NCBI GenBank assembly: GCA_951406725.2
Contig: OX597817.1
Coordinates: 18,228,001 to 18,292,000, forward strand
Length of the DNA stretch: 64,000 nt
Direction: 5' to 3'
Source: Octopus vulgaris
Lineage: Eukaryota
Shown: positions 1,686 through 2,236 of the stretch, in pieces
Position numbering within the stretch: the stretch's first letter is position 1
Layout of the letters: each line of letters begins with the position of its first letter
Program-made: the position numbers and the translations under genes
The notes under the pieces: model-generated
What the model saw: the letters and a program-made list of their open reading frames with translations, nothing else
The model's database searches: none
What the model was told of the DNA's origin: nothing

Positions 1686-2236
1686 TGGTGGCTGCCCCCT
1701 CGTTATCGAGTATGGCCATTGCACGAAGCTTAATAAATGTTGTTATCGTGCAATGCCTGTGCAAGAAGACTTTTTTTAAAGTGAGGAAAGGCTGTGCACT
1801 GAGTCAATCCCACACACTAAGCAACAGCAGCCATAATCCGAAAAGAAGTATAAGTCAACAAAATCGATAACCACTGAGCCACAGGTTTTATGATGGAGTT
1901 GTTCCAGTTACCTGAGTTACCTTCTCCTAGAAGGATGCCCTAACAAAGGCTAGGAGTCCTTCACTTCCAATGGTTTAACTGCGCGATCGGGTATTCAGTC
2001 CAATTATTTCTATGTCCCCGCGTATGATACAGCCTTTAGACATTTATTGAATGGCCGTTGACTCTCAAGAGTTCCTTCGCCCTTTGACGGGTTTTGTTTT
2101 TCATCCTGCAGGGTGTCCAATAAACACCCTCCTCACCAAGCAAGTTTGGTGAGGTTGCCGGTTTAGTCGCCGACGACCCGACCATGCAACAGGTTGTACT
2201 GGGTTACATGTTACCAAGTAGCACTCGAAAGTGACC
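1686..2236 (-). mobile_element. Short non-autonomous RTE-like retroelement lying between (TA)n and (CA)n tracts
   Basis: GC-richer non-coding block with sharp microsatellite borders; the minus-strand 3' end (ccatactcgataacgagggggcagccacca) resembles RTE 3' tails; structured 5' end. Confidence 0.6.
2158..2236 (-). ncRNA. Putative HDV-like self-cleaving ribozyme (slightly decayed)
   Basis: Minus strand: P1 GGUCAC; J1/2; P2 CCAGU; P3 ACA; L3 ACCUGU; P3' UGC; P1' AUGGUC; GG(P1.1)G; P4 UCG-UCGG-CGA; J4/2 CUAA; P2' ACCGG. Three G>A changes break one pair each in P1, P2 and P3. Confidence 0.6.

Follow-up and report, generated by a model that had tools for sequence, protein, structure and literature searches.

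The 5' end of a multicopy, non-coding retroelement of Octopus vulgaris very probably folds as a subclass 1a exoribonuclease-resistant RNA (xrRNA) of the flavivirus type, as judged by sequence criteria and with Rfam scores below the cut-off. Rather than cutting itself, this predicted knot likely defines and shields the element RNA's 5' end by stalling 5'-to-3' exonucleases. In dengue and Zika viruses, the xrRNA knot stops the RNA-degrading enzyme of the cell. The copy under study lies on the minus strand of a 64,000-nt stretch of the octopus genome (contig OX597817.1; hereafter the window, in whose coordinates all positions are given), where an earlier note had proposed that a short retroelement is headed by an HDV-like ribozyme. 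The sharp 5' end and the prediction of a pseudoknotted RNA at this end were borne out; the ribozyme was not, the 5' fold that covaries being that of a subclass 1a xrRNA.

The window copy (1686..2240, minus strand, 555 nt) is a whole copy of a bipartite non-autonomous RTE element. It is 95.7% identical to the 554-nt consensus of its family, designated family A, which was built from 30 copies; the mean identity of the other 29 is 98.0%. Searches of the genome returned 2322 candidate matches to the short family, 40 of which were scored and are 94-95% identical over their full length, and a motif specific to the junction of the short element has 1795 exact genome matches, its reversed control having none. 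About 1,800 or more copies of this 554-nt non-coding family are present in the genome. As had been described, the element is non-autonomous and some 550 nt long, with no ORF except for a stop-free stretch of about 74 codons in the family consensus; the junction matches show it to be multicopy. This stretch forms an upstream ORF (window 2186-1963, minus strand) whose ATG lies inside the 3' strand of the PK2 helix described below; its counterpart in family B has 23 codons. The family is also present in contigs from sequencing runs labelled as other organisms, and at loci L061, L063, L069 and L008, the microsatellite tail of an older copy has received further copies, in tandem.

Endonuclease- or reverse-transcriptase-like frames were found downstream of 10 of 40 loci carrying the P4 motif (taken in genome order), and at two of these ten loci the 5' part of the short element and its last 45 nt lie 3.1-3.3 kb apart. 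In ten of the 12 long copies fetched, an ORF lies between nt 1-508 and the last 45 nt of the short element. Since these ten copies share both end parts, the short element is a bipartite internal-deletion derivative of an RTE: window 1732..2240 (minus strand) corresponds to nt 1-508 of the 5' UTR of a parent RTE LINE of about 4.2 kb, and 1689..1733 (minus strand) to its last 45 nt, in the 3' UTR past the stop codon, the two parts meeting with 2-4 nt of microhomology. The only ORF of the parent is broken and begins near nt 600; the ten long copies have a total length of 3793-4313 nt, and Pfam matches are to Exo_endo_phos, RVT_1 and, weakly, C2H2. For the parent, assignment to the RTE clade is based on the single-ORF layout and on motifs recognized by eye. 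That the parent shares both element ends agrees with the dependence on RTE machinery suggested earlier. RTE-2_OV, as presented in the excerpted text of PMC9115989, similarly has one ORF with EN, RT and a C2H2 finger, a 5' UTR of about 600 nt and a microsatellite 3' end; by description only, its ORF of 3327 nt compares with about 3.5 kb here.

The 3' end is kept in 30 of 30 junction-anchored short copies. Their 5' starts fall at G1 (window 2240) in 18 cases, at nt 5-9 in three and at nt 41-440 in nine, and 19 of 30 parent copies, picked by the sequence just behind the shared part, start at nt 1-5. Intact 3' ends together with 5' truncation point to target-primed copying from the 3' end, with the minus strand of the window as the sense strand. 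A tRNA head was looked for in the short element and none was found, consistent with the non-Pol III nature proposed for it. With no small-RNA head, 5' truncation, intact 3' ends and a microsatellite tail, the short element is an internally deleted, non-coding RTE LINE derivative of the known bipartite type. In Bov-A, RTESINE2/WALLSI3 and RTE-N2_Lch, according to the portion of PMC5786205 consulted, a 5' UTR and a 3' end are likewise joined by internal deletion, an RNA-gene head is likewise lacking and the tail is a microsatellite; however, the 5' ends of these elements are ascribed to HDV-like ribozymes, whereas an xrRNA-type fold is predicted here. The window copy is flanked on its 5' side by a (CA)n and then (AT)n microsatellite (2241..2363) and on its 3' side by an AT-rich tail or target microsatellite (1463..1685), (TATG)n being the site of most other short-element copies. 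Because the flanks are microsatellites, target-site duplications (TSDs) are seen in few copies only: none was found in the 30 junction-anchored copies, and seven candidates end 3-8 nt before G1.

The predicted subclass 1a core, some 58 nt long, extends on the minus strand from S1 to the end of PK2 (2183..2240). Within S1 (2239..2240), G 2240 would pair with C 2196, forming PK1, and U 2239 would join A 2219 and U 2198 in a U.A-U triple, a feature taken from the excerpted text of PMC10747610. P1 pairs 2238-2234 with 2194-2190 (2190..2238) and is followed by the P2 hairpin (2233-2230 with 2225-2222; 2222..2233), which differs greatly between families in both length and sequence, with its closing C-G kept. 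The C between P2 and P3 that defines subclass 1a lies at 2221 and is found in 101 of 102 copies. P3 (2220-2214 with 2202-2197; 2197..2220), which contains one inserted T in the window copy, ends in the loop L3 (2213-2203), whose positions 2210-2207 would pair with S4 positions 2186-2183 to form PK2 (2183..2210); here too, families vary and complementarity is kept. Downstream lie the P4 hairpin and an A-rich stretch (2161..2182, core 2177-2174 with 2169-2166), which the HDV reading had taken as P1.1, P4 and J4/2, and two further 5' UTR hairpins (2154-2131 and 2130-2110), which had been noticed earlier and do form in the family-consensus fold.

Conservation was counted over 102 gap-free family copies, sets selected on head variants being left out. 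The 1a positions G1/C44, U2/A22/U42, CAGG/CCUG, C8-G19 and C20 are each present in 92-102 of these copies. For PK1, a predicted pair which never varies, G1 is found in 94 and C44 in 100; for the triple, deduced from the sequence, U2 is found in 94, A22 in all 102 and U42 in 100. The family consensus and the fold of an intact copy give a P1 of 5 bp with CAGG-CCUG within a three-way junction, and both the MFE and the centroid structure of the intact copy contain this P1/P2/P3 junction, folding z-scores being modest (-0.4 to -1.5). The window copy, with its inserted T and with G for C at 2238, does not fold into the junction, its first P1 pair being broken since 92 of 102 copies have C at this position. 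This broken pair and the insertion in P3 mark it as likely a decayed fossil. PK2 has 4-6 bp, the range of the subclass being 2-7 bp; its complementary strands differ in sequence between families A, D, F and H, and it is present in 29 of 37 heads outside family A. Taken alone, it is weak in each family (shuffled-loop P of 0.02-0.15). The ring-closing position in S4 is U in 100 of 102 family A copies and C in family F, as in several viral examples, and in L3 the A stands one or two nt short of the loop end (the ring pair of ZIKV being A37-U51). P4 follows PK2 in family A and, with a different sequence, in family H; it is not evident in family D.

A comparison of the families had yielded a 5' helix, a hairpin, a helix of 6 bp and a loop pseudoknot, and covariation supports this fold. 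Across 22 heads of nine groups, 93.6% of the cells of the xrRNA pairs are paired, compared with 22-49% in slid controls, and 28 cells have changed on both sides, a value reached by 0 of 500 shuffles, a control that overstates since the sequences are related. The compensatory changes occur in P3 and PK2, across diverged LINE families; the choice of the aligned heads with the pattern fixes P1, PK1 and the triple in advance, and four family F rows break three PK2 columns owing to a one-base register shift in the tool alignment. The core pattern itself has 1578 genome matches and its reversed control has none; with a longer P2 allowed, 89 places were found, which define further families. Among viral sequences, the pattern occurs at 32 loci, 17 of which lie near the 3' end of contigs of 10.4-11.1 kb, and 11 of these 17 contigs match flavivirus xrRNA families. 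A stricter form of the pattern has only 12 matches in 596 Gb of prokaryote DNA. The combination of a P3 of at least 5 bp and a PK2 of at least 4 bp, neither of which is fixed by the pattern, is found in 24 of 37 heads outside family A and in 12 of 18 flavivirus-like matches, against 0 of 11 among the prokaryote matches and 2 of 15 among the remaining viral ones. The sole viral contig with retrotransposon-type letters is RNA-phage-like, with the match antisense within an ORF, and was taken as chance. Three short viral contigs (L290, L292 and L294; 1.2-4.3 kb), not of flavivirus size, have good 1a-type junctions.

When compared with subclass 1a xrRNAs of mosquito-borne flaviviruses such as ZIKV xrRNA1 and MVEV xrRNA2, with features as given in the consulted parts of PMC10747610, PMC7749634, PMC8374639, PMC12081666 and PMC8571300, the octopus heads have the same strand order and CAGG/CCUG P1 core, the same S1-S3 G-C, U.A-U triple and junction C (by sequence here), a similarly variable P2 with closing C-G, a P3 of 5-7 bp, a P4, and a PK2 of 4-6 bp that starts 2-3 nt after P1. 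In families D and F, L3 ends in the same four letters as in several viral xrRNAs. The octopus head differs in having two core pairs as U-A where most viral examples have C-G, and in its location, which is a chromosomal retrotransposon's 5' end instead of the 3' UTR of a virus.

Among Rfam models, RF01415 (Flavivirus_SLIV) fits the head best, with a weak initial match of 16.8 bits to precisely the folded region. This model matched nine of 19 heads at 18.6-23.3 bits, below its cut-off of 54.5 bits, and the ten others not at all; the general model RF03547 (cut-off 37 bits) matched none of the 19. On the 17 flavivirus-like viral loci, RF01415 gave only 26.5-29.7 bits for four and no match for six, and a model built from the heads matched all 17 at 11-32 bits, in a comparison that involves short, pre-selected loci and is partly circular. 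In the window region itself, Rfam yielded nothing beyond microsatellite noise and a weak RF01415 match, and L133, a relative on a metagenome contig, had no match. A second, weak head-model match in the window (19682-19791, minus strand, 14.4 bits, E of 0.009) lies antisense in a reverse transcriptase fragment and is probably due to chance. The low Rfam scores, along with the divergent core of family B, would suit a three-way junction that resembles an xrRNA by ancestry or convergence and has another job, such as binding the ORF protein or priming the second strand, without resisting exonucleases. Such a role is improbable, as the unpaired nucleotides that are kept are exactly those described in the xrRNA literature as indispensable for resistance, and P2, L3 and S4 vary freely.

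HDV-like ribozymes of RTE elements were reportedly described by Ruminski et al. in 2011, and the letters on which this reading was based do stand on the minus strand, at 2236-2158. In its favor, the 3' half reads like an HDV core, with a helix ending in C, a GG, a P4 and CUAA; the proposed P2 is perfect in families C32 and C33; and RTE elements with such ribozymes are mentioned in the available text of PMC5786205. A self-cleaving, HDV-like head, in the proposed or in a variant threading, is nonetheless highly improbable as the means by which the element is cut from read-through transcripts. The three broken pairs, previously attributed to decay, are the state of the family, and the consensus does not restore them: of 102 copies, one has the expected G in P2, four have it in P3 and none has it in P1. 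One P2 mismatch is present in 101 of 102 family A copies, and across families P2 is 64.5% paired, P1 37-66% and P3 35%, with the first P3 pair (the A-C of the proposed threading) unpaired in 22 of 22 aligned heads. Over these 22 heads, 57.7% of the cells of the HDV pairs are paired, and 124 of 500 shuffles reach their covariation score. A relaxed HDV descriptor follows the proposed threading only with three mismatches; 43 of 150 shuffles thread it at least as well as the best of the family, and it finds no threading in family B or in L133. No HDV-type Rfam family at E of at most 10 was among the listed matches for the heads, the window region or L133, and L3 would be a 6-nt loop lacking the conserved U and G (PMC3774820).

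The block read as P1.1 GG, P4 and J4/2 is present in families A, B, C and E and in L133, with the J4/2 C in 100 of 102 copies. However, P4, J4/2 and the 3' strand of P2 are replaced in families D, F and H, which keep the 5' fold, and a similar hairpin followed by CUAA is also found in tRNA-SINEs of the same genome. The boundary speaks against cleavage as well: the 5' end had been placed at 2236, whereas the real boundary is 2240, where 18 of 30 copies start, with about 4 shared nt further upstream, so that copies begin 4-8 nt upstream of the cut site that had been put forward. In a metagenome scan, the P4 motif was met at 45 loci, 44 of which look like chance prokaryote matches and one of which (L133) is a true relative; other P4-variant patterns retrieved mutated family copies and tRNA-SINEs. 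Twister, hammerhead and pistol ribozymes, compared by eye with the table of PMC8501958 and with known cores, gave no fit.

The predicted xrRNA nevertheless shares its location with known ribozymes. HDV-like ribozymes of R2, RTE, L1Tc/NARTc and R2 SIDEs (PMC3774820) also place a pseudoknotted RNA at the exact 5' end, and, in the excerpted text of PMC12222951, they are proposed to free the element from its co-transcript and to protect uncapped RNA. In comparison, the octopus head has a different fold with no catalytic core, and its end would be set 4-5 nt outside the fold by a host exonuclease. The Perere-3 RTE of Schistosoma carries twister variants at its 5' end (PMC8501958), RTEs thus recruiting unrelated structured RNAs too; that twister self-cleaves, and its loop consensus is absent here, by eye.

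As had been suggested, the element is plausibly freed from read-through transcripts. Of 94 distinct heads, 30 have TTAT directly before G1, against a background of 0.3% per offset; the shared upstream signal ends at -4, the flank being variable beyond. In the consulted portions of the literature, class 1 xrRNAs are described as halting Xrn1 4 nt (PMC12081666) or 5 nt (PMC7749634) before PK1 and as blocking other 5'-to-3' exonucleases too (PMC8374639), and a polymerase approaching from the 3' side is not expected to be stopped by them (PMC10747610). The TTAT signal and the -4 boundary match the published halt distance of 4-5 nt. A mechanism can be proposed in which an element copy would be transcribed within a host or upstream transcript, and decapping, debranching or an endonucleolytic cut would open the read-through RNA to Xrn1 or Xrn2. 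These enzymes would trim it from the 5' side and stall about 4 nt before the knot. Next, the reverse transcriptase of the parent would attach to the 45-nt tail and carry out target-primed reverse transcription into (TATG)n or (TA)n sites. It would traverse the knot from the 3' side, so that new copies would start about 4 nt before G1. On the basis of these sequence features, exonuclease trimming down to the predicted knot is the favored explanation for the element RNA's 5' end and is probable, with appreciable room for doubt.

Sharp 5' ends with a short shared upstream sequence are also produced by the internal promoters of other LINE clades. The fold could therefore be real and an internal Pol II promoter could start a capped RNA about 4 nt upstream of it, the knot then protecting the RNA only after decapping, or serving as a protein-binding or translation element. 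Such a start at -4 would leave the same TTAT trace, which is seen in only a third of the heads, and the sharp ends and shared upstream sequence fit it equally. A capped RNA would in addition solve the translation of the parent ORF, which the uncapped model leaves unexplained, and the block after PK2, conserved in families A, B, C, E and G and in L133, could be a promoter element. Under this scenario, however, the start would coincide with the Xrn1 halt distance only by chance; the conserved downstream block has been lost from families H and F, the first of which begins at the knot all the same, and family F looks like upstream capture to a second knot. An internal Pol II start is therefore a serious but rather unlikely alternative to trimming, and genomic data cannot separate the two.

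The position of the motif in related families bears on the trimming model. In families E, G and H, the xrRNA-like motif is the starting point and leads into LINE ORFs, and H also comes in a bipartite short form of its own (L364). In family F, a second head lies 340-450 nt upstream, with a captured spacer, in three of three loci examined (L321, L330 and L335): a family-A-type head is followed by an AT-rich spacer and (TG)n and then by a second, different head. This arrangement looks like 5' capture up to the upstream knot, and it is what one would expect were the 5' end set by whichever knot lies furthest upstream. Family D has the motif in internal tandem units and not at an end; its loci (L337, L319, L318 and L359) contain two to three xrRNA-like units with a period of about 125-140 nt and no ORF, enclosed by direct repeats of about 150 nt, as in a small LTR/TRIM-like non-coding element. 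Family B (L071-L090), an older RTE-like family, keeps the topology and not the 1a core: the order P1/P2/P3/PK2/P4 is retained, with a longer P1 and apparently no junction C, reminiscent by eye of subclass 1b. L133 has all core positions and a PK2 of 6 bp, and the sequence of the block after PK2 is conserved between it and families A, B, C, E and G. In L327, L328, L348, L364 and L133, which belong to several families, the first five bases of the head are exactly duplicated, once or twice, directly upstream of G1.

To date, xrRNAs have been found only in viruses, and their presence in cellular RNA has been named as an open question, as stated in the available parts of two articles from 2021 (PMC8374639) and 2025 (PMC12081666). 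A literature search covering the main texts of openly accessible papers listed no report of a retrotransposon or cellular xrRNA; in the portion of PMC12222951 consulted the term xrRNA occurs in a reference, and the excerpts of octopus repeat papers contain no mention of ribozymes or of non-autonomous RTEs. A name for the family may already exist, for instance in Repbase. A broader proposal, for and against which the chances appear evenly balanced, is that several of these LINE families and L133 use a working xrRNA for 5'-end processing, with trimming in place of both promoter and ribozyme, that this represents the first cellular xrRNA, and that the module is shared with flaviviruses by ancestry or exchange. 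A covarying 1a fold at the 5' ends of several LINE families makes the question of cellular xrRNAs testable and bears on the origin of the flaviviral module. Besides internal promoters and ribozymes, trimming to a knot would give non-LTR elements a third means of setting the start of their RNA, and the fold could possibly provide a non-viral 5' stabilizer for retrotransposon-based gene insertion.

Several other repeats were observed in the window. A 340-bp self-complementary stretch (666-1004, 89%) is MITE-like. It is followed by a SINE-like repeat (1009-1397) with a hairpin and then CUAAA, resembling the P4 and J4/2 of the HDV reading; similar copies lie at 46611-47009, 50120-50511, 57771-57984 and 60099-60538. 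A second SINE-like repeat, made of three tandem 184-bp units, occupies 14026-14571, and positions 5879-6395 and 6513-7026 form a direct duplication of 517 bp with 98% identity. Finally, broken pieces of reverse transcriptase that by eye resemble CR1/L2 and R4/Dong, together with part of a mariner-like transposase, are found at 38764-40982 (minus strand), 19512-19955 (plus strand) and 32747-33160 (plus strand).
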